Assembly (NCBI GenBank): GCA_965207375.1
Contig: OZ242274.1
Coordinates: 160,001 to 224,000 of the forward strand
Source: Nitrosopumilaceae archaeon
GTDB lineage: Archaea > Thermoproteota > Nitrososphaeria > Nitrososphaerales > Nitrosopumilaceae
Direction of reading: 5' to 3'
DNA: 64,000 bases
Shown in pieces: positions 16,983-40,560 of this stretch. Each line of letters starts with the position of its first letter. Positions within the stretch are counted from its first letter, which is position 1. The position numbers were made by a program, and so were the translations under genes. The notes beneath the pieces are model-generated. The model did not search any database. It was given only the letters and a program-made list of their open reading frames with translations, and was not told the DNA's origin.

Positions 16983-17927
16983 TTATTGATGGAAAATAGT
17001 ATGTGAAAACAAACTAGCAGATATTCCTATCAACTGTATATCAAATTTTAAAGATGGCTCTATTCTGGTACGTGCATTATGTATTCTAAATGATATTGTC
17101 CAGCCATTATCAAAAGTTACGATTAAAATATTGTCTTGTTTTCTTTCGGTGTCAATTATCTTTCTTGGCATTTTTAGACGTGAAATTTTGTTTTTGGGTT
17201 TTATATTATTGCAAGGATAATTTAATGTTCCACACATGTTGTAGCCCTGTATTTTGGTACATTCATTATGTTTAATTATCTTGTAAAAGTCATTTTTTCC
17301 TAATAGATATTCAAGTAACAATTTTGGCACTTGGGGATTGTTTGACAAACTACACAATTCTTTTTCAAACGCATCTAGTGTAGGAATATAATATGAAGAT
17401 TCTTTGTTGTCAAGATCACGCCAGTTTTGATTTGGATTCTGTTTGAGTAGTGTTCTTATATCACCAAATATTTTACCTACACTCTTCATGTATTCATTGG
17501 AACAATTAACACCTAGCCATTCCTTCCCAAAATCTATCTTATCTGATAATCTTGAATGCTTAACTGCCGTATGATTGTTCTTTGCAGAAAACCCAATCTC
17601 CCAATTATGTACAGACCTTACCATAATCACATCCCTAACATCACCTTTTGCACCTTGTTGATCAGGCTGTATTGTTATGTGCAATTCGTCATCACTTATA
17701 GAGTGCTCAAGACGTGGTTCAAGATCTGAAATATAATCAACTGCTACACGTGCAGATTTTATGTATAGTTTTTGTTCCGTCAAGGTAAACAAGTCATAGC
17801 AGTTTTGTGCATTATAATATGATGTATTTTTTATGATTGTTATTTTTTGTCCATTATTTAGTTTGTCAAATAATTCAGTACATAGTGCATATTCAAATGC
17901 CTTTCCAGATTGCATTTGATTAGGCAT
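16983..17927 (-). CDS. HaeIII-family type II restriction endonuclease (probable GGCC)
   Basis: GKAFEYA, GDVRD, EIGFSAKNNHTAVKHSRLS, SFRIHNA...SLKFD are typical of the HaeIII family. Confidence 0.85.
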   Translation of the reverse strand: MPNQMQSGKAFEYALCTELFDKLNNGQKITIIKNTSYYNAQNCYDLFTLTEQKLYIKSARVAVDYISDLEPRLEHSISDDELHITIQPDQQGAKGDVRDVIMVRSVHNWEIGFSAKNNHTAVKHSRLSDKIDFGKEWLGVNCSNEYMKSVGKIFGDIRTLLKQNPNQNWRDLDNKESSYYIPTLDAFEKELCSLSNNPQVPKLLLEYLLGKNDFYKIIKHNECTKIQGYNMCGTLNYPCNNIKPKNKISRLKMPRKIIDTERKQDNILIVTFDNGWTISFRIHNARTRIEPSLKFDIQLIGISASLFSHTIFHQ

Positions 17928-17931
17928 TTTA

Positions 17932-18702
17932 TCAATCCAGGTCGTGACTTAAAATCAAAACTTCTCTTGATTTTTTATTATTTGACATTCCGTATTTCCA
18001 TTCAGGATAATGAAAGCGATAACCATCATAAAGAGAGTGGATTTGCTTGCAGTCATTATATGACAAAATCCATCTTTTACGCTTGTGTAGTAGATTAGCC
18101 AGCGCCTCATGATCAAACCCATCATGCATATTGCCTTTATCACCATACAAACGACTTTGTATAAGATATGGTGGATCAAGATACAATAGTTTGCCCCTGT
18201 TTTTTGGGATTGATTTTGTAAAATCAGCATGTGATACTTGTAAGTTTTGAATGCTGAAATTTACAAGTCTTTCAATGGCAGATTGTGTAAAACGTGGATG
18301 GTCTGGCGACATTCCGCCTGATAGTGTGGTGCCTGAAAAAGAACATCTGTTCAGAACATAAAATATTGCCGCTCTTTCATATTTTGAATGATTCTTGTAT
18401 GTCTTTTGAAGTTTATAAAAATCCGGTCTTGACATAGGATAATATTTGGTCACAGCATCTGCTAGTCTCTTTGGGTCCTTCAAAAGACATTGCCAAAATT
18501 CTACAACAGGCTTGAAATTATCATAGCCAATTACCTTAATGCCATTATTTGCACAGAAAAGTTCAACTGAGCCTCCCCCAAAAAAAGGTGAGCAGATAAT
18601 TTTTGTATCTTGAGGTATGAAATTCGATATTTCCAAAACACCTCTTGATTTGCCACCGCAATATCTTAGTGGTGATTTTGAATGCTTTTTAACAACTTGC
18701 AT
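17932..18702 (-). CDS. Dam-like (D12 class) amino-methyltransferase, probably N4-cytosine GGCC
   Basis: PLRYCGGKS, SPFFGGGS and YLDPPY motifs; adjacent to the endonuclease. Confidence 0.85.
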   Translation of the reverse strand: MQVVKKHSKSPLRYCGGKSRGVLEISNFIPQDTKIICSPFFGGGSVELFCANNGIKVIGYDNFKPVVEFWQCLLKDPKRLADAVTKYYPMSRPDFYKLQKTYKNHSKYERAAIFYVLNRCSFSGTTLSGGMSPDHPRFTQSAIERLVNFSIQNLQVSHADFTKSIPKNRGKLLYLDPPYLIQSRLYGDKGNMHDGFDHEALANLLHKRKRWILSYNDCKQIHSLYDGYRFHYPEWKYGMSNNKKSREVLILSHDLD

Positions 18703-18835
18703 CTGCCTTCACCCAATGATTACATTGTGAACAACATGGTATTTTCATTTTTGAGAAAAACTCATGACCGCATTCTTCACATTTTATGACCCGCCTTTTC
18801 TTTAGTTGTTCTGTATATTTTCTAGCTTTGGCCAC
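18689..18835 (-). CDS. 48-aa zinc-ribbon microprotein (not in ORF track)
   Basis: Manual translation MAKARKYTEQLKKRRVIKCEECGHEFFSKMKIPCCSQCNHWVKADASC; overlaps the methylase start; paralog at 36779-36913. Confidence 0.65.
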   Translation of the reverse strand: MAKARKYTEQLKKRRVIKCEECGHEFFSKMKIPCCSQCNHWVKADASC

Positions 18836-18961
18836 ATTTCGATACTAGATGTATACTATTTTAGTGTATATACTATACAAAAGTATACGGTTCATAAATG
18901 CATATACAATAGTATTCAAGAAACCCAAAGCGATCTAGATAAAATTAAAATATCTATTAAC

Positions 18962-20203
18962 ATGGGAGACTTTGTGAGCACCAAAATATCTACCGAAAGA
19001 AAGCAATATTATGACAAACTTCAAAGAACGCTAAAACCGAAGGAGACATACAAAGTTCCATACAAATCTAATACAGAATATACTGCACTTCCAAAATACA
19101 CAATTCCAATTGGTGATTTTCAAACAGGACTCAGATACAATCTGTATAACTCTAGAATATTAAGATCAATAGAGTTTGAAGAGTCTAAAGGTACAAAACT
19201 AGATCCATCAGATGAAGCTACTCAAAAACTAATCGAAGAAATTCTTCTCAATGACAAAAATTATTCTAGTCGTGCACCTGAAAAATTAGCAGAAGATTTA
19301 GACAACAGCGGCCAACAGGAACCTGCGATAATATCATGTGATGGGGTTATTTGGGATGGAAATAGAAGAATAGCTACAAAGAGAAATAAAAAGAGAGAGA
19401 CTGGGGATCCAAAATGGGATACAGTAAAATGTGTATTTCTTCCAGAACTTGATAAAAAACAACTGAAACTATTAGAACATCGCATTCAGATGGCACCAGA
19501 ACTTCGTGAGGATTATGACAGAATAACATTATTTCTTGATTGTAGAAAGAGAATAAGGGAAGATAAATGGACACTTGAGGAACTTGTTAATTCATTCAAA
19601 GATAGGTATACAAAAAAAGAGATTGAGGATTTTATCAAGCAAATTGACATAATAGATGAGTATTTGATACGAATAGGACGACCAAAAAATTATCCAAATA
19701 TTGGTGATAAAGGTGCCGAATTTTTTACCATCATGCAAAAACATATTGAAAAAGAGGACAAGAAATTAGGCACTAATAAGATTGATTTGGCCAAAATAAA
19801 AACGGAATTTTTTGCTGCAGCAGCACACCCTAAATCTACATATCAACATGCTCGAAATCTTGGCAAGATTTTGGCAAAAGAAGATACAAGAAAGACATAT
19901 CTTGCAAATTCCAAGATTTTCAAGGAGCATGCAAAGTACACCGTACCTGATAATGATGGAATTGAAAAAACATTTTTACCTAAATCTACAGATGATGTCA
20001 TTAAAAACATCACATCAACATCTGCTGAGATGAGTGCACGTGAAGTTGATGGACCCGAAACACTTGCAAACAAAGCATTGGACAAGCTTAATGACATCAA
20101 AGAAGAATATATTAAACAGGATGACTCTGATCTACTAAATACACTAAAACAAATTGAGAAACGCATAGTGATATTGAAGAAATACCTAAACGAAGATGTT
20201 TAA
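18962..20203 (+). CDS. ParB/Srx-like N-terminal domain protein
   Basis: GQQEPAIISCDGVIWDGNRR ParB-type motif; first gene of an overlapping operon. Confidence 0.75.
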   Translation: MGDFVSTKISTERKQYYDKLQRTLKPKETYKVPYKSNTEYTALPKYTIPIGDFQTGLRYNLYNSRILRSIEFEESKGTKLDPSDEATQKLIEEILLNDKNYSSRAPEKLAEDLDNSGQQEPAIISCDGVIWDGNRRIATKRNKKRETGDPKWDTVKCVFLPELDKKQLKLLEHRIQMAPELREDYDRITLFLDCRKRIREDKWTLEELVNSFKDRYTKKEIEDFIKQIDIIDEYLIRIGRPKNYPNIGDKGAEFFTIMQKHIEKEDKKLGTNKIDLAKIKTEFFAAAAHPKSTYQHARNLGKILAKEDTRKTYLANSKIFKEHAKYTVPDNDGIEKTFLPKSTDDVIKNITSTSAEMSAREVDGPETLANKALDKLNDIKEEYIKQDDSDLLNTLKQIEKRIVILKKYLNEDV

Positions 20204-22109
20204 GATTACATATCAAAACAATGAGTTATCTGTAATCTCTAATGAATCCTTAATTCCTGTAATTAGACAATTCTTACAGGATTTTGGGTTTGAAATGTCT
20301 GGGTCACAACAGATGATTTTAAAATTAAATAAATCTCCATATCCGATAATTGAATCTGTAAAACGAATGATTGAGGAATATGGACCCATAGTATTGGATG
20401 AGGGTTGCAATAAGATAATCGATGACGAAAATACCTCGAAATTGGAATTTCAAAACATGCTTGCTGAGGCAAAATCAATCAAGCATAAAGACAAGACATA
20501 TTGGGAAAATGTTGATGTGGTCATACCTATGTTAGCACCGGATAAATCACTAAAATGGTATCAGAAAATGCCAGTACAGCATGCAGTAACGCTGGGAAAT
20601 ACTGCAAATTTTTCAGTACCTGGTTCAGGCAAAACATGGATGGGTTACTCTACATTCTTCAAGCTAAAATATGAAAAGGATGTTGTTGATAAATTACTTG
20701 TAGTCTCCCCACTTGCTGCATTTAGACCATGGGAAACAGAGTATTACTCTATGACCGGAAAGGAACCAAACATAGTTAGAATAACCGGAACCCCTAAAGA
20801 AAGAAACAGCATAATTTATAACAAAATAAATTATTCTGACATATTTTTAATATCACATACTATGGTTACCAATGAAGAGGACCATCTGATAGATATAATG
20901 AACAAGTTTAGATTTATGGTAATAGTTGACGAATCACATAACATCAAAAAACATGATGGAAAACGCGCAACTTCATTGCATAAAATTGCACTATTTGCGC
21001 GCAGACGCATGATTCTTAGCGGAACACCAATTCCAAAGAACCTTCATGATTTGTGGTCACAATTTACATTTCTATATCATGATGAATCATTGCTACACAC
21101 ATGGCCACAATATGAGCAAGAATGCAAATCAGTAAATGCCCTTAAAGACATATCCTCTAAATTGAATCCATATTTTGTAAGAGTCTCAAAGGACGTGCTG
21201 AATCTACCAAAACCTACATTTAATCCAAACAATGTCGATGGAAGACCAACAATCATTCAAATGAATCCAATACAAAGAAGAATTTATGACACTATAGCAC
21301 TCAGGATCAAGAACAATGTCGAACAGTTTCGCAGTGATGCCGTTGCCCTAGACAAATTTAGAAGAAATTCTATGATTTACCTTATAGAGGCTGCAACCGA
21401 TCCCTCACTTCTTACAAAAGATCAAACATATCCTAATGATGATATGGATGCTGAAGGTCTGGAAATGTTAGAACTTTTGGCAAAATATCCACGTCTTAGG
21501 GGTGAGCGTCCAAATAAGATAACAGAAGCAATACGTCTTGCAAAAACAACGCTTGACTCTGATGGAAAGGTCATCATTTGGTGTAGTTTCATTAATACGA
21601 TACAGAAAATATCCCAGTATTTTGATGATGCAGGACATAAATCAATTCGAATATGGGGAGATATACCGCGAGATGAGGATGTCAATGAACACTTTAACCG
21701 TGAAAGTGAAATAGAGAAATTCAAAACAGATGGCAACTATAACATACTTGTAGCAAATCCTGCATCCATGGCCGAATCTATATCCCTGCACAAAGTCTGT
21801 CACCATGCAATATATGTGGACAGGACGTTTAATGGTGCACATTACATGCAGAGTCTTGAGAGAATACACAGGGTAGGTCTGCAATCAGATGTGCACACCA
21901 AATATGACATCCTCCAGTCCGAGGCATCAATTGATCAGACAATACATGAGCGTCTTACATTAAAGCAACAAAACATGGAAAAATTTCTTAACAGCAAAGA
22001 CCTCAAAATTCATGGAACAGAAGAATTTGTCAAAGGTTTCGATGATGATTATGCAGATGACTTTAACGCCGTGATACGAGATATAAAACAACATGTCGGG
22101 TCTGTTTGA
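20196..22109 (+). CDS. SNF2-family helicase/ATPase
   Basis: PGSGKT, IVDESH, LSGTP and QSLERIHRVG motifs. Confidence 0.9.
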   Translation: MFKITYQNNELSVISNESLIPVIRQFLQDFGFEMSGSQQMILKLNKSPYPIIESVKRMIEEYGPIVLDEGCNKIIDDENTSKLEFQNMLAEAKSIKHKDKTYWENVDVVIPMLAPDKSLKWYQKMPVQHAVTLGNTANFSVPGSGKTWMGYSTFFKLKYEKDVVDKLLVVSPLAAFRPWETEYYSMTGKEPNIVRITGTPKERNSIIYNKINYSDIFLISHTMVTNEEDHLIDIMNKFRFMVIVDESHNIKKHDGKRATSLHKIALFARRRMILSGTPIPKNLHDLWSQFTFLYHDESLLHTWPQYEQECKSVNALKDISSKLNPYFVRVSKDVLNLPKPTFNPNNVDGRPTIIQMNPIQRRIYDTIALRIKNNVEQFRSDAVALDKFRRNSMIYLIEAATDPSLLTKDQTYPNDDMDAEGLEMLELLAKYPRLRGERPNKITEAIRLAKTTLDSDGKVIIWCSFINTIQKISQYFDDAGHKSIRIWGDIPRDEDVNEHFNRESEIEKFKTDGNYNILVANPASMAESISLHKVCHHAIYVDRTFNGAHYMQSLERIHRVGLQSDVHTKYDILQSEASIDQTIHERLTLKQQNMEKFLNSKDLKIHGTEEFVKGFDDDYADDFNAVIRDIKQHVGSV

Positions 22110-23091
22110 TCTAAATAAGATGTTGATGACGGTCCATAATTTTGGTACAGGACCAACAGAGGAGAGTTTCATACGTTTGACATATGACAGTACATATTAT
22201 TCGGAACAAACGGCCAATTTTGACGATGTACTATATGTGGCCTCATGCATGAATTTTCTGGATTTGAATGGTGACAAAATATCACTTTTACAAAACGGAT
22301 ATGACTTTATTGATTTGACATCCAAATATGACAATCACGTCATGTTGGACAGCAACGACTTGCAGAAAAAATTTGTGTTTGACTGCCTTGATACGGCATG
22401 TATCAATGACATGTGTAAAACACTATTTGAAAAATTTTACATAAATTATTCATTTGAGCCACCAACATGGAATGCTTATTTACGTTTATTTGATAATAAG
22501 GAAAGGTTCCTTCTTGACATACTTTGTGATATTGGAGTGGTATCATTTGAGAGAAAAATGGTTTGGTTAGATAATCAACATTTGAATCTGTTTTCTGTAA
22601 TGAAACATGGATTAATTGTAAACTGGAGTGAACTTTTTGAGCGCAAACAACAAGTTGGAAATCTAGGTGAGGATTTATCTATGAATTATGAGGTAAAAAG
22701 ACTAACAAATTATTGTCGTGGGGATTTGGCAGATATGATAAAACAGACAAGTCTGATTGATCCGTACGCTGGATATGACATAATGTCATTTGATGCACCT
22801 GATTCAGATGAGGATTGTCCAGATAGATTCATTGAGGTAAAGGCAACTGTTGGAACACGGCCTAATTTTTTCTGGAGTAAAAATGAAATAATCAAGGCAA
22901 AACAATACGGTACAAAATATTGGATATATCTGTGGGTAAACGTTGATAATGATTCCAGAAAATTATACTTGATACAAGATCCATACAAAAATCTATTTGA
23001 AACTGGCAATCCTATACCTGAGCCAACTACATATCTAATAGATGGAAATGTGTTGGAACATGCAAACATGGAGGCTGTAGAAACAATATGA
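22093..23091 (+). CDS. DUF3883 (NO VEIN C-terminal, PD-(D/E)xK) nuclease-like protein
   Basis: GNLGE..., AGYDIMS...RFIEVKAT...FFWSKNE. Confidence 0.8.
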   Translation: MSGLFDLNKMLMTVHNFGTGPTEESFIRLTYDSTYYSEQTANFDDVLYVASCMNFLDLNGDKISLLQNGYDFIDLTSKYDNHVMLDSNDLQKKFVFDCLDTACINDMCKTLFEKFYINYSFEPPTWNAYLRLFDNKERFLLDILCDIGVVSFERKMVWLDNQHLNLFSVMKHGLIVNWSELFERKQQVGNLGEDLSMNYEVKRLTNYCRGDLADMIKQTSLIDPYAGYDIMSFDAPDSDEDCPDRFIEVKATVGTRPNFFWSKNEIIKAKQYGTKYWIYLWVNVDNDSRKLYLIQDPYKNLFETGNPIPEPTTYLIDGNVLEHANMEAVETI

Positions 23092-23927
23092 AGTTTACAG
23101 GTTCTGGAGTAACTGCATTTGATAAGATGCAAAAATATCTAAAAACACGCAAGACTAAAACATCTACAGATACAATGAGACAATTGAAACAACACAAGTC
23201 TGACAAACCTCATAATTTGGCCAATATCAAAAACAAACTTCCAAAGTCAAAACATCGTTTTAGATTTACCAAAAAGACACCCAAAGTAACCAATGATACA
23301 ACCCACGATGCATGGAGTTCCAAAATTCGTAGGAAAATTGATAGTTTGAACTGTGATAAATCTCGAATATTTCCACTTGGCGATATTACTTTTACACCAG
23401 ATTATATCCTAAAATTATCCTATGAAGGAAAACAAATCATTGTACATATAGATCGTAATTTTACAAATTCTGCAACAGAGAAATACAAATCATTTATGGA
23501 GAAGTTCAAAACAGCCTATTACTTTATTTTAGTGGTCAGTGATAATGATCTTAGGCGTTGGAATACGACCAATATGGGACGAAGAATCCTTTTTGATGAG
23601 ATTTGGGTCGGTGAAGATGTGACAGATATGATTAAAAACATACAAAAATTATCGGAACAAACCACAAACAAAATTATGGTATGCTCTAAATGTTATAAAA
23701 AGATAGAAGGCATACAAAAAATCAAGAGTCATTTTTCATATCAAACAAAAGAAGATGGTTCTCTTTTAATTAATTCTATATGTAGAAAATGTGTGGAAAT
23801 TCCACAACCTACAATAACTCATATTCCAAAATCAACGTACAAGTGTATAGGTTGTGGTAGTGATTTTGATACTACAATAGCTTCTCAACTATATTGTGAT
23901 GTATGCAATGACAAACTACAATCATGA
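23088..23927 (+). CDS. Hypothetical protein with nuclease-like core and C-terminal zinc fingers
   Basis: FTPDYIL motif and four CxxC pairs; overlaps the previous gene. Confidence 0.6.
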   Translation: MKFTGSGVTAFDKMQKYLKTRKTKTSTDTMRQLKQHKSDKPHNLANIKNKLPKSKHRFRFTKKTPKVTNDTTHDAWSSKIRRKIDSLNCDKSRIFPLGDITFTPDYILKLSYEGKQIIVHIDRNFTNSATEKYKSFMEKFKTAYYFILVVSDNDLRRWNTTNMGRRILFDEIWVGEDVTDMIKNIQKLSEQTTNKIMVCSKCYKKIEGIQKIKSHFSYQTKEDGSLLINSICRKCVEIPQPTITHIPKSTYKCIGCGSDFDTTIASQLYCDVCNDKLQS

Positions 23928-24009
23928 GATTTATGTACACACTCAGGTCATAGATTTTTCAGGCATGAAATTTTCATGTCTGTATCATCACATCTAATAA
24001 ACTCTAAAG

Positions 24010-24669
24010 TCACCTTTTAGTTGACTTTTTTGGGCTTTGCAGGTGTGCTTGCTTTTTGGCAGCCTTTATCTTGTCCTTGATTTTCTTTTTGGCAAGTATC
24101 TGTTCTTTGTTCCTTTCATAGTATTCTTTTGAGCGCTTGTCAACCTTTTCCTTGTTATTCTGGTAATACTCTTTTTCTTTCTGTATAATTTTCATCTTAT
24201 TTTTTTCCCTGTTATTCATGTACTCCTTTTTGATTTTCTCTTTGTTCTTTTGATAATACTCTTTTCTATACTGTTGTAGTCTCTCCTCGTGTTCTTTGTT
24301 ATAGGCCTTTGATTTGTTTACGAGTTTCTTTTTGTTTTTTTGATAGTATTCTTGCTTTTTTTCCTTGTCCTTGCGTGCATTTGATCTTGTCTTTTCTTTA
24401 TTCTTTGTATAGTGTGCCGCCTTTTGTGCAAGTAACCTTTCTCTGTCTTTTTGATACTTTGCCTTCTTTTCTGCTAGTATCTTTTCCTTGTTTAGTTCGT
24501 ATAGTGCCTTATGATGCGCCTTGATTTTCTCCTTGTTTTTTTGATAATATTTGGCAGTGTATTGATTTTCTCGCTCTCTTAGTTCTTCGTGTTTTTCTTT
24601 ACGTTTTTCCTTGATTTTTTCTTTATTTTTCTGATAATACGCTTGATGTTGTTGGGTATAGGTAGACAT
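24010..24669 (-). CDS. Basic 15-aa repeat protein 3 (YYQKNKEKI repeats)
   Basis: ~13 repeats; SD-like GAGGTGAGG upstream. Confidence 0.75.
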   Translation of the reverse strand: MSTYTQQHQAYYQKNKEKIKEKRKEKHEELRERENQYTAKYYQKNKEKIKAHHKALYELNKEKILAEKKAKYQKDRERLLAQKAAHYTKNKEKTRSNARKDKEKKQEYYQKNKKKLVNKSKAYNKEHEERLQQYRKEYYQKNKEKIKKEYMNNREKNKMKIIQKEKEYYQNNKEKVDKRSKEYYERNKEQILAKKKIKDKIKAAKKQAHLQSPKKSTKR

Positions 24670-24675
24670 GTTACC

Positions 24676-25119
24676 TCACCTCGATTTTTTGGCCTGTACC
24701 GGCTTTTTGGCTCTCTTGACAGGCTTTATCTTGGCTTTAGTCCTGGCTGCAGTTTTCTTGCCTAGTTCGTATTTTTTCTTTTTATCTGCTAGGATCTTTT
24801 CTCTGTTTAATTGATAACGTTTTTTGTATTTGGCAAGTAACTTTTCTTTATTCTTTGTATAGTATTCCTTTTTTTGCTCTAAGACCTTCTTTTTGTTCTT
24901 TATATTGTACTGTTTGTTATATTCCTTGAACCGTTCCTTGTCTGATTCGTATAGTTCTTTGTGATTTGCCTTGATTCTCTCTTTGTTCTTTTGATAATAA
25001 TCGGCGCTGATTTGATTTTCTTGTTCTTTATTTGCTGTATAATGCTTTTTGCGGTTTTTCTTGATTCTTTCCTTGTTTTTTTGATAGTAGACTTGGTGGG
25101 TTTGTGTGTAGGTAGACAT
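24676..25119 (-). CDS. Basic 15-aa repeat protein 2
   Basis: Same MSTYTQxHQxYYQKNKE start and repeat. Confidence 0.75.
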   Translation of the reverse strand: MSTYTQTHQVYYQKNKERIKKNRKKHYTANKEQENQISADYYQKNKERIKANHKELYESDKERFKEYNKQYNIKNKKKVLEQKKEYYTKNKEKLLAKYKKRYQLNREKILADKKKKYELGKKTAARTKAKIKPVKRAKKPVQAKKSR

Positions 25120-25124
25120 GCATG

Positions 25125-25745
25125 TTACCCCGATGTTTGCTTGATGGTTTCTTCTTTGATCTTTTGACGGTTGATTCTTGCTCGTTCTGCGATTTTTTCC
25201 TTGTTATTTTGATAGTATTCTTTTTGCTGCTTTGCAATCTTTTCTTTGTTATTTTGATATTTTACCTTGTTCTTGACACTTATCGCTTCCTTGTTCTTTG
25301 TATAGTGTTTCTTTGCTCGCTTGGCAAAATCAGCCTTGTTGTTCTGATAGTATGTCTGTGCACGTTTGACAAATTTTTCCTTGTTATTCTGATAATACTC
25401 CTTTGCACGCTTTGCAATTTCTTCCTTGTTTGCCTTGTATAGTGCTTTTTTCTTGGCGCTTAATTGGGCCTTGTTCCTTTCATAGTATTGCTTTTCTCTC
25501 TTTGTAACTTTGTCTTTATTTTTCTCCCTGTACTCTCTACTGCTTTTTTTGAATTTCTCCTTGTCATTTGCATAGTTGTTTCTATTCTTTTTTTTTATTT
25601 GCTCTTTATTTTTCTGATAATAGGTATACTGATTTTCTCGTTCTCTGAGTTCGTTGTGGTGTTTTTTGTGGTTTTCCTTTATCTTTTCTTTATTTTTCTG
25701 ATAATACTCTTGGTGTTGTTTTGTGTATGTAGTTAGTTGTTTCAA
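25125..25745 (-). CDS. Basic 15-aa repeat protein 1
   Basis: ~12 repeats; 44 bp downstream of the S-layer gene. Confidence 0.75.
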   Translation of the reverse strand: MKQLTTYTKQHQEYYQKNKEKIKENHKKHHNELRERENQYTYYQKNKEQIKKKNRNNYANDKEKFKKSSREYREKNKDKVTKREKQYYERNKAQLSAKKKALYKANKEEIAKRAKEYYQNNKEKFVKRAQTYYQNNKADFAKRAKKHYTKNKEAISVKNKVKYQNNKEKIAKQQKEYYQNNKEKIAERARINRQKIKEETIKQTSG

Positions 25746-25789
25746 TTTTTCAGAATAAAAAGAAAAGGGGAAATGTGTTGTTTTCTAGT

Positions 25790-28700
25790 CTAGTTGACAG
25801 TTATTGTGAGTTCGTTTGGTGGTGATAGTGCAGTTGGATTATCTACAGACTCCCAAACAAATGCAGTTGCAGTGTATGTTCCTGCCTCTGATGGGGTCCA
25901 TGATAATGCTGGACTAAACGACTGTGAAGGTGTCAATGTTCCTGAAACCCATGCAAGGGCTACAGTTACACTGCTACTATCCTGAATCTGTACGATGTAT
26001 GCAAATGGCTGATCTTTATCCTGACCGTTTGCTAGGTCGGCTGTAATCTGTACCTGTTGATCCACGTCGACCGTATCTAGCGTATTGCTAAATGCATCAA
26101 CTACTCTCAAGTTGGTAGCTGGTGCTCGTTCGAGTGGAGGTATGATTGAGCCAATCTGGGTTGTGGCAGTAATATCGATTTCATCTGATGTATCGTGTGG
26201 ATCAGGTAGTGTACGGTCGTTATATTCTGCAGTGACAGTGTCGCCTTCTGAAACTCTCAGTCTGTGACCGGAGGATGTATCAGATACGGTAAAGAATGCT
26301 GTGCCTTCAAAGATTCCGGTTGCCTGGTTTGTCTCAGTTACAGTCAAGTCAATACCTCCGACATCTGAATCAGACCAGACGTTAACCTCAAAGTTATCGA
26401 CTGATTCTGGATTCAAATTCATGTCTGGGTCTATTACCCTGATTACGCCTGTACCGCTAGCTGCATAGCTTGCTTCTAACCACTGAACCTCACCGATATT
26501 CCATCTGATTAGTGCTGATCCTACTACCGTTTCATCCTCTGAAAATTCAAAGGAGATAGAAAGACCATCATCGTCTTCAGTTGCTAGGAATCCGTTTGTT
26601 GGTCCTAAGTTGTCAGTTTGGCCTTTACCGTCACCGGTAATTGCTCTTGCATCGTCTTTTTCGCCGTCACCATTAGCATCGTGTGCAAATCCAGTAAGGA
26701 TTACCTCACCAGTAAAGATTCCAGTGTTAGGTCCTGTCTCAACCAGTTTGTATTGGTCAAGGTCGTCACCTCTTGTTGCAATCTTTATTGGATCGTCACC
26801 AGTATTACCTATTTCATCTACCAAGTCAGAATCGAAGTTGTGATCAGGTGCTACAATAGTTATGTAGACCTTATCAGTCCAAGTGTAAACCTTTTGGTCT
26901 AGCTCCACTGTACTGCCAAAGTTTGATGTAAAGATTGTAAGATTAATATCTTCATCTTCATCACCAACGTGGTCAGAACCAGATGGGCCCCAATCGGTAT
27001 ATTCTAGTTCGATTTCTTCACCTCTTTCGAGTTTGTCGCCGCCTAGTTCTGCAGGAACTTCGACTACAACCTGGAAGACTCCAGTGCTGTCACCTGTTTC
27101 TCTAAAGTCGGCTGGTTCTGGATCAAATGCTGCTGCATCTGTTCCATATTTACCCATACTCGTTGTGCCTGCATCTGAATCCCACTCGATTAAGTCAAGT
27201 GGATATGTCTCTGCTCCATCATTGTCAAGATCAAAGTCTGGCTCTATTAGAGTCAAGATCATGTCACTTCCAATGATGTAGACTGACTTGCCAGATTGCA
27301 GTACGGCGTTTCTTAGGTCAAATGTAGCTGAATCAGTAATTGTGTTTGGCTCACCAGATGCGTCTGTTGGATCTTCATACTGTACAGTAATAATATCTCC
27401 TTGCAGAATACATCCATCTTTGAATATGTTATTTGCAGCATTTGGATATACTGGACAATCGTTTGTAGGTCCATCATTGTAGCTGATTGGAATATCTGCT
27501 TCAAAGATTCCAGCGTCAGGTGCAATCTCTGTAATTGGACCATACTCCTTTGCAGTAGTATTTGTAGCCTCAATTACATTTTCTCCACCTGCTGTTGCAA
27601 CAATTTTAGAAGCTTGTCCTCTTGAAACAGTAACCTCGATAGGTCCTTTTGTGCCTGATGCGATTGTATCTTCACCAGAGGCTGACAAATCATAGTCAGG
27701 ATCAGAGACTCTGACATGAATTATTGCATCGCCTTGTGGCAAATATCCACTAGCACCTTCGTCCTTAAACTTGGATCCATCTGAAGTATCAATTGATGGA
27801 TGAAGTGGGAATGCATTATCTGCGAATGGAACTGGGTAAACCGTTCTGTCAAGAGATATTGAACCAGTGCTGGCTCGTACACCTGCTGAATCACCTACTT
27901 CGATGATTTCACCAGATTCGTCTCTATAGTCAAGATAGTTTACTTCAATGTCAGTACCGGTAACAGATAATCGTTTACCGTCGTCATTGTTTTCACCATT
28001 GATTTCTGTTGGACAATACATTGCTGGAATCTGGAATGAACCAGTAAAGACACCGCTTGCAGTTTCGGTTTCAATTAGTGTGAAACCTGTTTCATGTAAG
28101 CCGTCATCAGAGTTTGGATCATCTCCACACTCATTTACAGTCCATGTCTCGTCATCAAAGGTAACATCAAGTATTCGTCCTAATGGATTACCAGATTCAC
28201 TGATTGTTTTGTTAGCGCCAATTGATTTACTGTAAGACTTTGATACGTCTTTTCCGACTGTGTCGGCCAAGTCGCCGTCTTCGACTACGGTAAATATGTC
28301 AATCAAGTCACTATCCACGTTCAAGTCAGCATCAGTCAATTTGACAATCACTGTATCAGCCACCTTGTAGGATTTTGAATCAAGTGATACCACACCAGAG
28401 TGTGATGGTGCTGCTTGTTGGTCAGCAATCTGTGTTGAAACACCGTCTGCTCCTAGGTCAAGATAATTGACTCGAGGAGAGTCTTCATCTGTTAGATCCT
28501 CCATTACGATAAATGTTGGTTCATCAGATATTGGACTAAGACCTTTGTATGTATCTGCGTCTAGTATGTTGAGTTGGTTTAACATGGTGTATTCAAGGCC
28601 ACCTACAAAGGTGTCAGTGTTATCACCAGTTTCTTCCAATTCAAGTCTGACTATTTGGTTAGCTGTTCTTCCGTCATCGCCAAATCCAAATGCGAAAAAG

Positions 28701-31700
28701 TCCAATACAATTGGATCTGCTTTAGCATCAGTCTTGGCGTTAGTTTTGACGTTGTCTTTATGATATTCAATGAGTATTGCTAATTCACTGTCGTCATGAA
28801 TGTCCAAGATGTTTGTGATTGTTGCATTGTGAGTGTGTGCTTTGTCTGTTTGGTCTACCTGAACTGTTTGTCCAAAGATTTCACCAAATGAGTTGATTGC
28901 ACAGTCAATACATGATACTAACTGTGGGCTGTTCAACATTGGTATAGATGATGTAGAAGCACAAGTGTTAACTGGATCAGCTGCTTTGTATGTAAAGCTA
29001 GTAGCAGTTGCATCGTCAGCTATCTCAAGTACGTCATAGATTGTACATTCAAGATCACCGTTGGCGCCAAGAATTGTACTGTGTGTCAAGGAACTGGCAT
29101 TGTATGCACGAGCTACATCTGGCAAGATTTGCTTTAGTTGCTCGGCTGTGCCATCTTTTCCAAGTTGATCTATGGCTCGTGCCATGATTTGACCTGCGTC
29201 GTATGCGGCATATACATGCCTATCAGCATATTCGTTTCCTTGGTTGGCTATATCATGTAATTTTTTAGCGTTAGCGCTGTCTAGTGCAAACTTTATCGTT
29301 TTCATGTCTGTGGCTTTTAGCAATGCAATTCCATCAGCGTCAAGTGCTGCTGGAACGGTTGCTGCAAGGTCTGGAATGAAGATGTTTGTTGTTTCAATTC
29401 CTGTATAGATATACGTACCATTAGTGTGTGTCTTAGATAGTTCCATGATTACAGTTTCAACTTCACCAAATCCTAGAATCACAATTGCGGTGTTTGCTGC
29501 AATAGTGCCTACGTTTGCTGGGGTCAATTTGCTCATTATTTCACCTGTCAAGTCTGTTGCAGATGAATTGTATGCAATCTCTTTGTGGTTGTTACCATAT
29601 AGAGTGACTAGTTGATCTTTAAAGTCAGCACTCCATGCATCGTCGCGATGTATGGTTATGACGTTTGCAATAGTAGCATTATCTAACTGTGGCTTCAAAA
29701 CCTCAGCTGTCTGACGTTTATTGTCCATAGTTAGTCTGAATATATTGTCGTCAAGTGATAGCGTTGAAGCAGTTGAAGCATAACTTAGGAAGACAATTCT
29801 AGATTCATCCTTGTATTTTGTCAACTGTTCTGAGCTGTATGTGCCGACAACTCCTATATGTTCATCACGAACTATTGGGTCAATGTCTGCGGTAGTACCG
29901 GCAGTGATGTTATATCGTACGTCATAAATAGTCGTATTTTGTTGCCTTCTGTCTTCATTATGATAATCGCCTATGGCAATACCAAATGCTTCAAAGAATT
30001 GTTGTTCGTAGTTATCAGCTATATTAAGATACAGCATTGGAATGTTAACATCGCCAGCGTCAAAGGCTACTCTGTCTGGAATTACCACTGGAGTTGGTGC
30101 TGGTGCAGTTATTGTGATAGTAATAGATTCTCTATCAAAACCACCTTTTCCGTCACTTGCTGTAAACATTACATTGTTTGTGACACTTTCAGTTGGTGTA
30201 TTCCAAGTGAATGTGTGGCCTACTAGAGTTGATCCTGTTGGCTTACCGATCACATTGTAATTAACCCTGTCACCATCTGGATCAGGTGCAGAGAGAGTGA
30301 AGGATAGTGCTGTGCCTTCTTGGTGTGTTATATCACCGATTTCTGCCAAGACTGGAGGTCTATTTACTGTGATAGTAATAGTCTCGGAATCCATACCAGA
30401 TGCGTCAGCTGCTGTGAATGTTACTCTGTGTGTGCCTGAACTTGATGGAGTCCAAGTGAATTCACCTGTGCGGTTGTCAAATGTTACTCCTGTTAGACGT
30501 GGGGTCATATTGTAAGTAATACTGTCGCCATCTGCATCAGTTGCATTAACTGTGAAGGTCAATGTTTCATCTACGTTTACAAATTTATCACCTATTGGGT
30601 CTAAATCTGGAGCGGTGTTAGATGAGCCTCCATTGGTTTGTGCTGCATTTACGGTTATAGTAACAGTCTCTGTATCACTGCCTCCGTTACCGTCAGATAC
30701 AGTAAACAGGATGTTTACAGAACCTTGGGCTGTTGGAGTGAATGTAAAGACGTTGGCAGTGTTTGTTGGCAGTGTTTCTGCATTATCTTCTGTATAGATC
30801 AAAGTATCGCTAGTGTCAGCGTCAGTTGCTACAACAGTTAGTGTCAATGATTGACCTACTGTTACTGTTCTAGCACCGGTTACTGATGATATGACTGGAT
30901 CTGCGTTAGCTGGTGCAGTTGGAGTTGCCGGTACATTAATAGATGCTGGGCCTGTTCCTTCTGCGTTTGTTGCACTTACTTTAAAGATGTAGTTTTGATC
31001 GTTTGTGAGACCTGTTATTGTAGCGGTTGTTCCCGTTACTGTAACAGGAGTGAAGGTGTTTCCTGCATCTGCACTGTATTGTACTGTGTAGTTGAGGATT
31101 TGTGAATTGCCGTCATGTGGTTGATTCCACTCTAGTGTGACTTGAGTATCACCTACTGTAGCGTTAAGACCTGTTACTTGTTCAGGTATAGTAGCTGTTG
31201 CTGATGGAATTGCAGTATCAACATTAGATGCTGGTCCTGCTCCTTGTGCATTTGTTGCAAGTACTCGGAAGTGGTATGTTTGACCGTTAGTAAGTCCAGT
31301 TACCATAGCAGTTGTTCCAGTTACAGTTGTAGAATCAACGAAGTTAGTTCCATCAGTACTTTGTTGTACTGTATAACCTGTTGCTGGAGTACCAGTGCTT
31401 GGTGCTTTCCATTCTAGTGCAACTGCTGCGTCTCTACCTTGTGCTATAAGACCAGTTGGTGCATTAGGTTCTGCTATAGTTTTAGGACATTCAACAGCGT
31501 TAGTAGTTTCTTGTGTTGGAGTTTTAAGTGCAAATGTTCCAGAACTATCATCAATCTCAAATATGTCATAGACCATACATGCTAGGTCACCATCTGCGTT
31601 TAGCTTTGTATTGTATATCAAAGCGTTAGGACTATAATCGTTTGCTACGATTGGAATCCGTTTGTTTAGTTGTTCAGATGTGTAATCCAATTCACCATCT

Positions 31701-34609
31701 TCTGATCTAAGATCATCTATGGCTTGTGTCAGAATCTGACCTGCGTCGTATGCGGCGTATGCATGTCTGTCAAAGATGTTACCAAAACTGTCAAGATTAA
31801 CACGATCAGAAGGACTCTGATTTTGTAGAGAGGTCTTCAATGCTGTTTGATCATCAGTGTTGTCACTTAGTGCAAACTTTATCGTCTGCATGTTTGTGGC
31901 TTTTAGTAATGCAATAGCATCATCGTTTATAGTAGTACCGAATGCACCACTTGGAACATCAGGAATGATGAACTTTGTGGTCTCGATTCCTTCAAAAACA
32001 TAAGTGCCGTCAGTATTTTTCATGGCAAGTTTTTCTATCAATTTATCAAGTCCCTCTTGATTATATTCAAGAATCACGATTGCGGTTCTTGAATCAAGTG
32101 GATTTTGCAATAAACCATTAGAAGTTGCTTTTAGAACACTGTCAAACTCGGTAGATATGTTCTTTGCGTCAGCATCGTATGGAATAACTCTGTGTTCGTT
32201 ACCGTATACTCCGGTTAATGCAGTGACATAATCATGACTCCATGCATCATCAAGATGTATGGAGATGATTTGGTCATAATCATTATCTGGAATCAGTTTT
32301 GTTACTATATCGGTCACCTGACGAGAGCTATCAACGGTAAGTCTGAAGATGCCATCATCTTGTACAGCAAATGATTTTGCTGCTGAAGAGTAACTTAACA
32401 AGACAATGTCTCCATTATCTGTACCGATCTTGCCGGTGTTGTTAAGAGTCCTCAACTGTTCTGAGGTGTAAGTACCTACTGCTCCTTTAGCGCCTGTATT
32501 TAGTACATCCTGTATAGCGGTTGTTCCCAAAGTTATTCTCTTTGGAGCATAGTCATTATCGGTAACAACATCGGTAACAGCTTTATCAAATGCTGTTCCA
32601 AAGTGTTGCGATTCGTAATCACGACCGTCGTATAGTAATGGAATTGGTGTTGGTTGTACTTGTGGTTCTGGTGCTGGCTTTACGGTTATAACAACAGTGT
32701 GTGTATCAGAGGTTGCTTCATATTCGTCAGTTGCTGTAAACTCTATGGCTACAGAACCTGCTGTTTTTGGAGTGAATACAAAGACATCATCATTGTTTGG
32801 TGATGTTGTTTCTGTATTGTTTGCACTGTACTTCATAATGTTACCAGTAGTGTCAACTGCATTAACAGTCAGTCTCAATGATTGACCTACTGTTGCATTT
32901 GCTACACCACTAACCGATGATATGACTGGAGCTGCGTTATCACTTAGTTCTTTACAAGAAGAAGGATTAGTACCATTCAATAATACTAGACCACTGCCTG
33001 ATGTGTTACAATGTAAAGCAACATCGACTGATGTACCGTTATCGGTATTCACCAATGATATGTTTACAGTACCTTCAGGTAATGAACTAATGTCATAATT
33101 GAATAGATTATATCCATAGTTTCCATCGTTGGTATTGACCAAAGAGGCTTGTAGTTCCTCGCCGGTAATACCAAGGTCAATTAGTACGGTGCTTACTGTG
33201 TTACCACTTTTAGCATCGTCAAGAATTGCTCTGTCGCTGAATGCATTCACATTTGTTTTGTTATCTTCTGTACCATCATAAGACACTGTGATTTGTCCGT
33301 CGCTATTTGCTCCACTACCTAAGGTAATTGGGCTTCCAGTCCTAAGACTTGGAATTATTTTGTAGCTAGGGTCACTTAATGAAATGTCCTCGTCTGCTCT
33401 GGTATTTTTGTTAATATCAGCATCGACAAGAACGACCGGTATTAGTTCACCGCTGTTCCAAGTGGCAGATGCGGGTTGAATGTCAATTGTAGCAAATGCG
33501 TGAGTTACTAGGACAGATGCTGGACCGTCATTGTAATCTACAGTAGCTGACGTGCCTCTATCTGCATCATCGATGATTTTGAGTACAGATTTGTCAGACT
33601 CGTCATAAGTACCAAAGATTCCACTGTTAGGTCCTTGTTCTGTGACAGTTATTGCAGCCGGAACTCCGTCGACAGGATTAGAATCGCTGTTATCCTGAAT
33701 TTCAATGATGTCGTTACCCTGTGTACCTTTGTTTAGTAACAATTTACAATCAGAGCACATCAAATCAGGATCAGACGGATCTATGCTGTCACGTGCTGTG
33801 TTAGTTCCTTCACCGCCATTATCATCAAAGAGATGGTAATAGGCTTCACCGTCGCCTTCTGGATCTGAGTTGAACGTCCAAACATCCTCGTCAGTTGGGT
33901 CAATGTTTAACCATGCATCAGTAATAGTTGCATGAACTTGTGCTCCTTGTGGATAAGAAGTTCTGTCCAGCATTATACCTGCAAAGTCGTCAACAGTATC
34001 AAAGGTTAATGTGGTGCTTTGTGCACCGCCACCTTTGTTATACTGTACTACAACATTGCCACCTTGACTGAATGTGTAGAGTTGGATGAATGGCCATGCA
34101 TTGGCATCAACGCCAATTTGACCACTACCAAAACTGTTTATGTTCTTCTCTTCTCTTACAACATTGACATTATCGCCATTATTGTAAAAGAGTCCATCAG
34201 CTTCAAATTCAGTAAGATCAATATCACTAGCAGAACCAGATGTACCAAAGTCCAATCCATTATCAGTACCATCAGCTAACTCTGCCATTTCTTTATCAGC
34301 AAAGTAACCATACCAGTTACCGTCAGTTGCTTGAACCATTCTCAGGTTGTTGCCATTAACAGTAACGTCAGGTTCTCCCTCGCCTTCATTAGTATCAGAG
34401 ATAGATGAATCAATTATTGTCACCTCAATTACTTGAGGTCCGGACATGTAATTGTCAAATTTTGAGTTTTCTGCGGAGACGAACAAGTTCGCGTTGGCAG
34501 CATAGGCCTCTGGTACCATTCCTGGTACTGCAAAGGTCATTCCACCAGCGACCATAATTGTCATTAGTGTTAGACTAGTTAATTTTCGTTGTATTTGTTG
34601 TTGTTTCAT
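25790..34609 (-). CDS. Giant SlaA-type S-layer protein with inserted Ig-like, 2x periplasmic-binding and 2x FN3 domains
   Basis: N-terminus RKLTSLTLMTIMVAGGMTFAVPG...ANLFVSAENS..NYMSGPQVIEV and C-terminus ...AFVWESVDNPTALSP are typical of Nitrosopumilus S-layer proteins; central insert of ~1350 aa. Confidence 0.88.
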   Translation of the reverse strand: MKQQQIQRKLTSLTLMTIMVAGGMTFAVPGMVPEAYAANANLFVSAENSKFDNYMSGPQVIEVTIIDSSISDTNEGEGEPDVTVNGNNLRMVQATDGNWYGYFADKEMAELADGTDNGLDFGTSGSASDIDLTEFEADGLFYNNGDNVNVVREEKNINSFGSGQIGVDANAWPFIQLYTFSQGGNVVVQYNKGGGAQSTTLTFDTVDDFAGIMLDRTSYPQGAQVHATITDAWLNIDPTDEDVWTFNSDPEGDGEAYYHLFDDNGGEGTNTARDSIDPSDPDLMCSDCKLLLNKGTQGNDIIEIQDNSDSNPVDGVPAAITVTEQGPNSGIFGTYDESDKSVLKIIDDADRGTSATVDYNDGPASVLVTHAFATIDIQPASATWNSGELIPVVLVDADINKNTRADEDISLSDPSYKIIPSLRTGSPITLGSGANSDGQITVSYDGTEDNKTNVNAFSDRAILDDAKSGNTVSTVLIDLGITGEELQASLVNTNDGNYGYNLFNYDISSLPEGTVNISLVNTDNGTSVDVALHCNTSGSGLVLLNGTNPSSCKELSDNAAPVISSVSGVANATVGQSLRLTVNAVDTTGNIMKYSANNTETTSPNNDDVFVFTPKTAGSVAIEFTATDEYEATSDTHTVVITVKPAPEPQVQPTPIPLLYDGRDYESQHFGTAFDKAVTDVVTDNDYAPKRITLGTTAIQDVLNTGAKGAVGTYTSEQLRTLNNTGKIGTDNGDIVLLSYSSAAKSFAVQDDGIFRLTVDSSRQVTDIVTKLIPDNDYDQIISIHLDDAWSHDYVTALTGVYGNEHRVIPYDADAKNISTEFDSVLKATSNGLLQNPLDSRTAIVILEYNQEGLDKLIEKLAMKNTDGTYVFEGIETTKFIIPDVPSGAFGTTINDDAIALLKATNMQTIKFALSDNTDDQTALKTSLQNQSPSDRVNLDSFGNIFDRHAYAAYDAGQILTQAIDDLRSEDGELDYTSEQLNKRIPIVANDYSPNALIYNTKLNADGDLACMVYDIFEIDDSSGTFALKTPTQETTNAVECPKTIAEPNAPTGLIAQGRDAAVALEWKAPSTGTPATGYTVQQSTDGTNFVDSTTVTGTTAMVTGLTNGQTYHFRVLATNAQGAGPASNVDTAIPSATATIPEQVTGLNATVGDTQVTLEWNQPHDGNSQILNYTVQYSADAGNTFTPVTVTGTTATITGLTNDQNYIFKVSATNAEGTGPASINVPATPTAPANADPVISSVTGARTVTVGQSLTLTVVATDADTSDTLIYTEDNAETLPTNTANVFTFTPTAQGSVNILFTVSDGNGGSDTETVTITVNAAQTNGGSSNTAPDLDPIGDKFVNVDETLTFTVNATDADGDSITYNMTPRLTGVTFDNRTGEFTWTPSSSGTHRVTFTAADASGMDSETITITVNRPPVLAEIGDITHQEGTALSFTLSAPDPDGDRVNYNVIGKPTGSTLVGHTFTWNTPTESVTNNVMFTASDGKGGFDRESITITITAPAPTPVVIPDRVAFDAGDVNIPMLYLNIADNYEQQFFEAFGIAIGDYHNEDRRQQNTTIYDVRYNITAGTTADIDPIVRDEHIGVVGTYSSEQLTKYKDESRIVFLSYASTASTLSLDDNIFRLTMDNKRQTAEVLKPQLDNATIANVITIHRDDAWSADFKDQLVTLYGNNHKEIAYNSSATDLTGEIMSKLTPANVGTIAANTAIVILGFGEVETVIMELSKTHTNGTYIYTGIETTNIFIPDLAATVPAALDADGIALLKATDMKTIKFALDSANAKKLHDIANQGNEYADRHVYAAYDAGQIMARAIDQLGKDGTAEQLKQILPDVARAYNASSLTHSTILGANGDLECTIYDVLEIADDATATSFTYKAADPVNTCASTSSIPMLNSPQLVSCIDCAINSFGEIFGQTVQVDQTDKAHTHNATITNILDIHDDSELAILIEYHKDNVKTNAKTDAKADPIVLDFFAFGFGDDGRTANQIVRLELEETGDNTDTFVGGLEYTMLNQLNILDADTYKGLSPISDEPTFIVMEDLTDEDSPRVNYLDLGADGVSTQIADQQAAPSHSGVVSLDSKSYKVADTVIVKLTDADLNVDSDLIDIFTVVEDGDLADTVGKDVSKSYSKSIGANKTISESGNPLGRILDVTFDDETWTVNECGDDPNSDDGLHETGFTLIETETASGVFTGSFQIPAMYCPTEINGENNDDGKRLSVTGTDIEVNYLDYRDESGEIIEVGDSAGVRASTGSISLDRTVYPVPFADNAFPLHPSIDTSDGSKFKDEGASGYLPQGDAIIHVRVSDPDYDLSASGEDTIASGTKGPIEVTVSRGQASKIVATAGGENVIEATNTTAKEYGPITEIAPDAGIFEADIPISYNDGPTNDCPVYPNAANNIFKDGCILQGDIITVQYEDPTDASGEPNTITDSATFDLRNAVLQSGKSVYIIGSDMILTLIEPDFDLDNDGAETYPLDLIEWDSDAGTTSMGKYGTDAAAFDPEPADFRETGDSTGVFQVVVEVPAELGGDKLERGEEIELEYTDWGPSGSDHVGDEDEDINLTIFTSNFGSTVELDQKVYTWTDKVYITIVAPDHNFDSDLVDEIGNTGDDPIKIATRGDDLDQYKLVETGPNTGIFTGEVILTGFAHDANGDGEKDDARAITGDGKGQTDNLGPTNGFLATEDDDGLSISFEFSEDETVVGSALIRWNIGEVQWLEASYAASGTGVIRVIDPDMNLNPESVDNFEVNVWSDSDVGGIDLTVTETNQATGIFEGTAFFTVSDTSSGHRLRVSEGDTVTAEYNDRTLPDPHDTSDEIDITATTQIGSIIPPLERAPATNLRVVDAFSNTLDTVDVDQQVQITADLANGQDKDQPFAYIVQIQDSSSVTVALAWVSGTLTPSQSFSPALSWTPSEAGTYTATAFVWESVDNPTALSPPNELTITVN

Positions 34610-34826
34610 GTTATTGGTTTTTATCTGAAAACTAAGCAATTTTCCCTAGTTTTGACCTGTATCATAACCACTGGGCGTGATTTTTTGCCATTTTAGGCGA
34701 TAAAGCCACAAAATGATTAACCACTAACCTGTTAACACCCTCTCAAGTGACGAACCAATAGTCCATTTGTCTTATATCCTACGTATTGTATCATTAATCT
34801 TGGATAACTTGCTTCTCAAAAGATGG

Positions 34827-34926
34827 GTAACACTTCGACTTTCTGAAGTTATGTGCGTAAAAAACGCCAAACTCTTGATTTTTACATTTGATTCAGGCAT
34901 AGTACTTCATAAAGTCGATCTGTTAC
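34827..34926. mobile_element. 100-bp IS66-family MITE, copy 1
   Basis: GTAAC...GTTAC imperfect TIRs; 8-bp TSD AAAGATGG. Confidence 0.9.
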
Positions 34927-35078
34927 AAAGATGGATCATTTGTCCATTTGTCTTATATAGTTAGTTTTCAGATAGAAATTAATCATTTTTCATTCATAAA
35001 TCTGATTGAGCGTAAAGCCTGCGGTTATAGGAACAGTGTTTTGATGGTCCCAGAGGCTAGGACGCAGGCACGATACAG

Positions 35079-36157: not shown

Positions 36158-36538
36158 TCATGCTTTTTTTCTCTCAAATGCTATGAAAATCACTGTAGAC
36201 CCGTCAAATTGGTAAATTATTGTAACACTTCGACTTTCTGAAGTTATGTGCGTAAAAAACGCCAAACTCTTGATTTTTACATTTGATTCAGGCATAGTAC
36301 TTCATAAAGTCGATCTGTTACAAATTATTATCCAACCAGTATTAAATTCTAATTTTTTATAATCACCCTCAGAACATGTTGCACATCCTCCAATATTATT
36401 TGGAGTCGGATGATTTGCAATTTGTATCGTGTAATTATTTATATCATATTTGTCCTTCGTGTCCCGAAGTATTGAATGTTTAACATAAAATCTTGGTTTG
36501 TATTTACGATTCCATTGTGTTTGTGTTTTCTTATACAT
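36158..36538 (-). pseudogene. RelE/YafQ-like toxin interrupted by MITE
   Basis: Removing MITE plus one TSD restores a 90-aa ORF MYKKTQTQWNRKYK...NTGWIIIYQFDGSTVIFIAFERKKA. Confidence 0.6.
36222..36321. mobile_element. 100-bp IS66-family MITE, copy 2 (identical to copy 1)
   Basis: Same sequence as 34827-34926; 8-bp TSD AAATTATT. Confidence 0.9.
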
Positions 36539-39097: not shown

Positions 39098-39146
39098 TGG
39101 CTTTAGGCAGGATTGTGAGTTATTAAATCAATCTGTCTGGTTCTTA

Positions 39147-39226: not shown

Positions 39227-39228
39227 TA

Positions 39229-40530: not shown

Positions 40531-40560
40531 TAGCTACGAACAAATTTCAGGATTATTAAA

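Follow-up and report, generated by a model that had tools for sequence, protein, structure and literature searches.

What are three small adjoining genes, each encoding little else than a basic 15-residue repeat, doing directly behind the S-layer gene of a Nitrosopumilaceae archaeon? The genes lie in a 64,000-nucleotide stretch of chromosome, here called the window, which is part of a 2.16-Mb contig (C1 of genome G000). Judged by sequence comparison, the repeat is an arm of HNH and GIY-YIG nucleases that is absent from family catalogues. Its occurrence on viral-type nucleases had been noted before; what is new is its nuclease-free expansion and its recurrent placement beside surface genes.

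The repeat genes behind slaA and their paralogs

The S-layer gene slaA (25790..34639, minus strand) is a 2949-aa frame with an acidic product (Asp + Glu 452, Lys + Arg 153), whose C-terminal ~468-469 residues match PDB 8c8k (E 4.6e-239), as befits a homolog of the N. maritimus S-layer protein; the archaeon is accordingly related to Nitrosopumilus. Past its stop codon comes a 44-nt spacer (25746..25789, minus strand) with a C/T-rich tract that is typical after slaA stops family-wide and is a probable archaeal terminator. Gene A starts at the end of these 44 nt (25125..25745, minus strand; 206 aa, TTG start, 12 recognisable 15-residue units) and is followed by gene B (24676..25119, minus strand; 147 aa, eight units and a Lys/Pro-rich tail) and gene C (24010..24669, minus strand; 219 aa, ~10 regular units plus irregular stretches). 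The preliminary description of three tandem paralogs is accurate: the ORFs are intact and separated by 5 and 6 nt, and the common N-terminal motif and the two basic tails are correctly given in it. The start of gene A is supported by an in-frame TTG that is kept at all three intact clusters on the chromosome (see below), although the lengths of the A-run differ.

BLOSUM autocorrelation of proteins A, B and C is maximal at lag 15 (z = 10.7, 7.6 and 7.2 against 300 shuffles), with z of 9.4, 8.2 and 8.4 at lag 30 against as many shuffles, and the 15-residue spacing carries a Tyr-Tyr-x-x-Asn-Lys-Glu-x-hydrophobic scaffold. That the proteins are built only from this repeat, as had been proposed, goes slightly too far: the 12, 8 and 10 units are there, but they cover just 92%, 82% and 85% of A, B and C. 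The second unit is degenerate in A and C, and C also has irregular spacings of 22, 11 and 19 residues. All three proteins are basic (Lys + Arg 31-34%, net charge +34 to +42, pI ~10) and contain no Cys. They match no Pfam family at E<=0.1, NUMOD and nuclease catalytic domains included, and no NCBIfam family at E<=0.01. With a highest 11-residue hydropathy of -0.17 to -0.40 they also lack a signal peptide, so the earlier statement that neither a catalytic domain nor a signal peptide is present holds. Downstream of gene C, a scan of three frames detected no ORF or nuclease remnant.

Several other features surround the locus. A ~45-bp dispersed repeat with ~30 copies on C1 lies just past gene C (window 23935-23983). 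Defence-like genes flank the S-layer locus on both sides (window 16983-23927 and 35079-35969) and comprise a HaeIII-type endonuclease, a D12 adenine methylase, a weakly ParB-like protein, an SNF2 helicase, a NOV_C protein and Mrr. Window positions 37631-42569 hold several coiled-coil-rich ORFs of no clear family, two of them with weak MORN-variant matches.

Seven repeat genes are present on the chromosome. They form three clusters, and immediately upstream of every cluster is a full-length slaA paralog; the order is A-B-C in the window, A-B at 1.209 Mb of C1 and B-C at 2.058 Mb, where B bears the first codons of A. The paralog of gene A (A2) lies at G000:C1:1209259-1209882, B has paralogs in both other clusters, and C has a 265-aa paralog in the third cluster, in which its basic tail is not kept; gene A has no tail. 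The slaA family itself numbers four full-length paralogs and one truncated copy, with intact repeat genes behind three of the four. Behind the fourth, the spacer recurs and is followed by a stub with 11 codons of the common start and, beyond that, by an IS-like region, while the fifth copy (G000:C1:1401242-1406248) is truncated at its 3' end ~90 codons before the usual end.

Between paralogs, dN/dS is 0.34 for A versus A2, 0.17-0.25 for B and 0.31 for C, with a pooled value of 0.30 (CI 0.23-0.40) at dS of 0.39-0.73 and an upper confidence bound of at most 0.55 in all five pairs; the slaA C-terminus gives 0.17-0.29, and in the last segment compared its pS is 0.09-0.14, as if the slaA 3' ends had been homogenised. 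Because dN/dS is 0.17-0.34 at such divergence, the repeat genes are selected and not decaying: purifying selection maintains them, and they are not HNH debris. Pieces of DNA 85-90% identical to the locus occur on contigs from the sequencing runs of two other studies; one such contig spans the A-B junction, and the loose end of another hints that an A-like gene there comes after a B-like one.

A nuclease arm and its anatomy

The preliminary description had stated that similar repeats precede HNH domains in viral proteins. This is borne out, and GIY-YIG nucleases carry them too. Among the best 120 of 293 homologs of protein C, 56 have an HNH-type motif, 49 a GIY-YIG-type motif, one has both and 14 have neither; at least one of the two motifs is thus present in 106 of the 120, compared with 6% of shuffles. 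Strict motifs were used for these counts, a looser nuclease regular expression having matched 29% of shuffles, and a Pfam nuclease domain was confirmed in 14 of 60 homologs scanned. The repeat, whose dominant spacing is 15, is N-terminal to HNH in 54/56 cases and C-terminal to GIY-YIG in 45/46, and because it is found before the one and after the other we regard it as a mobile accessory module. EndoVII nucleases are also among the carriers.

The profiles used (A1-A3) were built from whole proteins, not from single repeat units. One profile retrieved 7847 representatives at E<=0.001, and in this broader representative set strict nuclease motifs occurred in 74 of 141 new best matches. About ten nuclease-free versions, judged by eye, were seen in other genomes and metagenomes; the stand-alone state is therefore not unique to the genome of the window. 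In PHROG, repeat-rich stretches of proteins A-C weakly match an HNH family (E 2e-5 to 6e-3), and in the ESM Atlas the clusters found, at 0.91-0.92, are largely viral and their recognition is low. A literature search that covered few subscription papers found no description of the 15-residue repeat or of a linkage to surface genes. On an animal-like contig of the same assembly (locus L012, G000:C3:311471-317579) a related 15-residue repeat, in which Asn is followed by Pro, stands ahead of Helitron-like ORFs, and a long array similar to it is found in P0163; rolling-circle transposons of eukaryotes may also make use of the repeat.

Two DNA-free AlphaFold2 models of the gene A product were made, one shallow and one from a 94-sequence alignment. 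The latter is a single long helix (pLDDT 96, pTM 0.53) broken only at residues 18, 76, 106 and 181, which are conserved Asn positions, and the shallow model breaks at Asn 76 and 136. As modelled, each unit makes about four turns of helix, with a kink where the conserved Asn stands; one face would present Tyr, Asn, Ile, Tyr and the variable residues at +7/+8, free of acid and flanked by Lys/Arg rails, and the opposite face would be Glu-rich. Across 1756 distinct units from homologs, Asp and Glu are nearly absent from the Tyr/Asn/Ile face and the positions next to it, and Lys/Arg lie at the flanks: the two acidic residues make up 1-5% at positions 5, 7, 8 and 9, in contrast to 24-44% at 6, 10, 13 and 14. 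The positions scored (5-10, 13 and 14) played no part in finding the units.

Entropy across the same 1756 units is highest at +8, and the residues found there are typical of base contacts. Positions +4 to +8 vary between units (identity 0.11-0.27) and are kept between paralogs in 147/180 cases as opposed to 93/147 at other variable positions (p 2e-4, for a post hoc comparison of pairs that are not fully independent). As to the suggestion that the variable positions might set specificity, +4 to +8 are unit-specific and paralog-kept, a pattern that was recognised post hoc. Taken with the models, the anatomy of the units appears to be that expected for a modular reader of a polyanion.

Tracking along a DNA groove, also suggested at the outset, finds no support in its tight form. 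Fitted indirectly, from the rmsd of the DNA-free model to straight helices, protein A describes a wide superhelix of radius ~27 A and pitch ~175 A with an error of 1.1 A, compared with 8-15 A for groove geometry; with such a wide superhelix the protein would have to tighten upon binding. Foldseek gave no match for the first model in the PDB or for the second in BFVD, the VIA structure search turned up no more than long helices of a generic kind (Z<=8; rmsd of 22-49 A in the long alignments), and a search by sequence among solved structures had no match with E below 0.5. Ancestry and anatomy together nevertheless make DNA binding in some form by A-C quite probable. In its working the array is most likely a DNA-binding arm of the NUMOD type, yet it falls outside NUMOD3 and every nuclease family.

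Surface genes and switchable promoters

In relatives, the slot after the slaA stop holds a ~320-aa SlaB-like gene at 20 of 29 slaA loci, and repeat searches retrieved none of the 29; S-layers hence do not need the repeat genes. We considered and rejected the repeat genes as a SlaB replacement, since the SlaB-like gene is intact in the genome of the window at G000:C1:321095-322081, apart from all slaA copies (weak NF040788 match, E 2.7e-8, far below cut-off). The hallmarks of a SlaB anchor, a signal peptide and a C-terminal membrane helix, are absent from A-C, as their low hydropathy indicates. In Sulfolobales, slaA and slaB form one operon in which the slaB level is lower, according to the accessible part of the report (PMC5744192), and this precedent makes read-through from slaA into gene A plausible.

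How widespread is the linkage to surface genes? Of 400 family genomes, one profile picked out the repeat in 15 and a second in 24, and none of four genomes of the same genus yielded it. Inspection showed nuclease-free copies in about 11 of the family genomes and HNH fusions in several, and five were false or unresolved. Nuclease-free copies adjoin surface-protein genes in four other family genomes (G283, G396, G169 and G091), whereas in about seven of the ~11 other genomes with stand-alone copies these lie away from surface genes. In G283, which was reached via the repeat alone, a frameshifted copy ends ~100 bp before slaA; in G396 an IS separates slaA from a copy ~1 kb beyond it that has Cys pairs at its C-terminus. 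Seven of eight copies in G169 and three of four in G091 follow acidic secreted proteins by 18-24 nt, and these neighbours are of Ig/PKD/EPTP types, or of a P-domain type for two copies. This placement occurs in just two of ten genomes of the genus concerned (g18). With the genome of the window, the relatives provide four placements in three genera; copies inside one lineage are products of co-duplication and do not count as independent cases. Because of this co-duplication, and because about seven genomes have copies elsewhere, a hot spot for insertion retains some plausibility as an explanation.

The g18 repeat genes have their own ATG and ~5 to 18 units. In all ten cases in which a g18 copy follows a surface gene, the copy shares the frame of that gene's stop, and the spacer between them, 18 or 24 nt long, comes in five versions (L202:13815, L203:13858, L205:6098, L206:14614, L207:6293, L208:14747, L209:9365, L227, L232 and L235). 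The upstream stop is TAG in the seven that were read, and one of two decayed remnants is out of frame (22 nt). Amber read-through by pyrrolysine was considered for g18 and rejected, no pyrrolysyl-tRNA synthetase (PylRS) scoring over the cut-off in any of three genomes. At a locus of G283 (listed also as G067; L170:3756-16554), two slaA copies stand face to face and have in common a 1.7-kb, 92% identical 3' end. Frameshifts interrupt the first of the two and also the repeat gene upstream of it, as a result of either decay or an error in the assembly.

Upstream of slaA in the window lies an invertible promoter (34618..34978) bounded by 18-bp inverted repeats that are 94% alike, and its TATA-like core faces away from slaA in the assembly. 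Two other slaA promoters of the genome are likewise bounded by inverted repeats (G000:C1 ~1200290-1200550 and 2066800-2067000). The repeats measure 18-24 bp throughout, and the core is reversed at the window and the third cluster and forward at the second, which leaves one of the three promoters on in this assembly. Inversion is seen from a comparison across paralogs (two reversed, one forward). Such a promoter precedes all three slaA copies with intact repeat genes versus neither of the two without (a weak correlation, p=0.1), where no promoter inverted repeats were seen. Were the repeat genes transcribed by read-through alone, the orientation seen in the assembly would leave A-B-C unexpressed. 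Within the slaA promoter sits a 103-bp near-palindromic, MITE-like element (window 34827-34929) with an identical copy at 36222-36324 and ~15 or more diverged copies on C1.

Inverted repeats were not found upstream of slaA in G283 or G396, nor upstream of any of the six g18 surface genes tested, and inversion is thus no general partner of the repeat genes. Of 20 slaA promoter regions from relatives, 13 were scorable and gave one weak inverted-repeat match, with 4/60 among shuffles. The genome has one tyrosine recombinase, far from slaA, and no serine resolvase for the inversions was found in it. A literature search found no paper on archaeal S-layer promoter inversion.

Possible roles and known counterparts

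The explanation that we tentatively prefer, though we would put it at somewhat under an even chance, is that A-C are domesticated DNA-binding arms acting on surface-gene expression, where both binding and expression are inferred. They would descend from the DNA-binding arm of mobile HNH, GIY-YIG and related endonucleases, with the nuclease lost. The proteins would stay cytoplasmic, would be made by read-through from slaA and hence only with the promoter of that copy flipped on, and would bind the archaeon's own DNA through unit-specific contacts. They may thereby be regulators or architectural factors for surface genes, for example keeping other slaA promoters off or steering inversion. A bolder version, which we hold to be doubtful, would make the 15-residue kinked helix a new modular DNA-reading repeat with a code at +4 to +8, captured several times from viral nucleases by host-associated ammonia-oxidising archaea; nuclease-free arrays co-expressed with each surface gene would then be locus-specific regulators that enforce one-coat-at-a-time S-layer switching.

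The repeat is tiny and widespread across its thousands of representatives, and A-C are short, soluble-looking, nuclease-free forms of it in three sequence types, which suits them to asking whether it reads DNA by a code. If it does, it would be a programmable binder far smaller per unit than TALEs, and the tie to invertible slaA promoters, if true, would be a first handle on archaeal S-layer phase variation. If A-C are just generic polycations, they would be a curious domestication.

The generic case is the alternative that survives best, although we consider it unlikely. A-C would form a non-specific DNA coat, compacting or shielding DNA in the manner of histone H1 or protamine, and the position behind slaA would simply lend them a very strong promoter. 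Their net charge suits such a coat, as do the Lys/Pro-rich tails borne by B, C and, independently, the g18 copies, the abundance of restriction-modification genes in the window and the freely varying unit number (from ~5 to 18 within g18). A coat would, however, fall silent whenever its slaA copy flips off, and three sequence types kept side by side, each with unit-specific residues at +4 to +8, exceed what a generic polycation needs.

The acidity of the neighbouring proteins invites a different reading, one to which we give a rather low probability: a polycation that serves SlaA and the g18 adhesin stalks as a cytoplasmic chaperone or counter-ion before export, or a read-through adhesin tail in g18. 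Besides the acidic residues of SlaA, Asp + Glu against Lys + Arg counts of 174/63 and 138/44 for g18 proteins fit such a partner, the acid-free face would fit any polyanion, and the ten in-frame g18 copies would fit a tail. But relatives with an equally acidic SlaA have no such gene, gene A of the window is out of frame with slaA yet selected, the g18 copies have their own ATG, no PylRS scored over the cut-off in the three genomes, and the ancestry of the module is nuclease-associated.

It is improbable that the position is incidental, that is, that A-C are functional DNA binders whose nuclease gene landed in a hot spot at a surface locus and was copied along with the conserved 3' ends. IS elements beside two loci, the homogenised look of the slaA 3' ends and the many stand-alone copies elsewhere agree with this, and the g18 copies score 99.8 bits on the window profile against 135 bits for viral-type ones, which fits separate captures. 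Adjacency to slaA nevertheless recurs in three genomes, of which two came to light solely through the repeat, against an expectation of ~0.03 by our own rough estimate (~4 flanking slots among ~2000 genes), and the genes have been retained to dS of 0.4-0.7.

Contigs C2-C4 of the assembly resemble animal DNA, which implies a host-associated sample, and a sponge-associated lifestyle of the archaeon is likely. The basic tails had been read as nuclear localisation signals, and A-C could on that account be effectors sent into the nucleus of an animal host; sponge thaumarchaea do carry host-interaction proteins, as the accessible part of PMC7848895 relates. We think this very unlikely: NLS-like matches number 4, 4 and 3 in A, B and C, no commoner than in shuffles (means 4.7, 4.5 and 6.8), gene A is tail-less, the tail of C is not kept in its paralog, and there is neither a signal peptide nor a hydrophobic segment for export. 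That A-C are decaying fragments of one HNH nuclease gene is scarcely credible, despite the weak PHROG matches and the existence of one stub and several broken copies, given that all seven copies are open, each with its own N-terminal motif, that the upper bound of dN/dS stays at or below 0.55 in every pair, that no nuclease remnant follows gene C and that related DNA turns up in the runs of two other studies; the genes stand alone.

The preferred reading, of domesticated arms acting on surface-gene expression, has several counterparts among known systems. TAL effectors and PPR proteins are built of tandem units with a fixed scaffold and variable positions. A-C resemble them in scaffold, variable positions and, in the model, superhelix; they differ in having one kinked helix per unit instead of a hairpin and in lacking an export or activation domain. 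AP2/ERF domains were domesticated from the DNA-binding domains of HNH endonucleases. The evolutionary route, in which the DNA-binding part is kept without the nuclease, would be common to both, although the fold is unrelated and the regulatory role of A-C is putative.

Sponge thaumarchaea have expanded S-layer families and host-interaction domains (10.1101/527234, PMC7848895), and 15-residue repeat proteins are not mentioned in the accessible parts of these two sources. SlaB, in the slaAB operons described in the accessible part of PMC5744192, resembles A-C in lying directly behind slaA past a probable terminator, and differs from them in its signal peptide and membrane helix. The nearest modules described for the 15-residue repeat are the NUMODs (PMC3664794, PMC2677866, PMC1564403), of which NUMOD3 is reported to be a minor-groove DNA-binding helix that occurs in tandem (PMC3664794, PMC2677866). 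As far as the accessible portions of these papers go, the NUMODs of I-TevI, I-BmoI and I-HmuI are likewise short, repeated, basic helical modules shuffled among HNH, GIY-YIG and other nucleases. The A-C type has no Pfam NUMOD match and is set apart by its strict 15-residue period and Tyr-Tyr-x-x-Asn scaffold, by 8-18 linker-free units and by the absence of a nuclease from the window proteins. The 15-residue arms of viral-type HNH, GIY-YIG and EndoVII nucleases share unit, spacing and position profile with A-C; compared with these arms, A-C are nuclease-free, chromosomal, multi-copy, selected and tied to surface genes.
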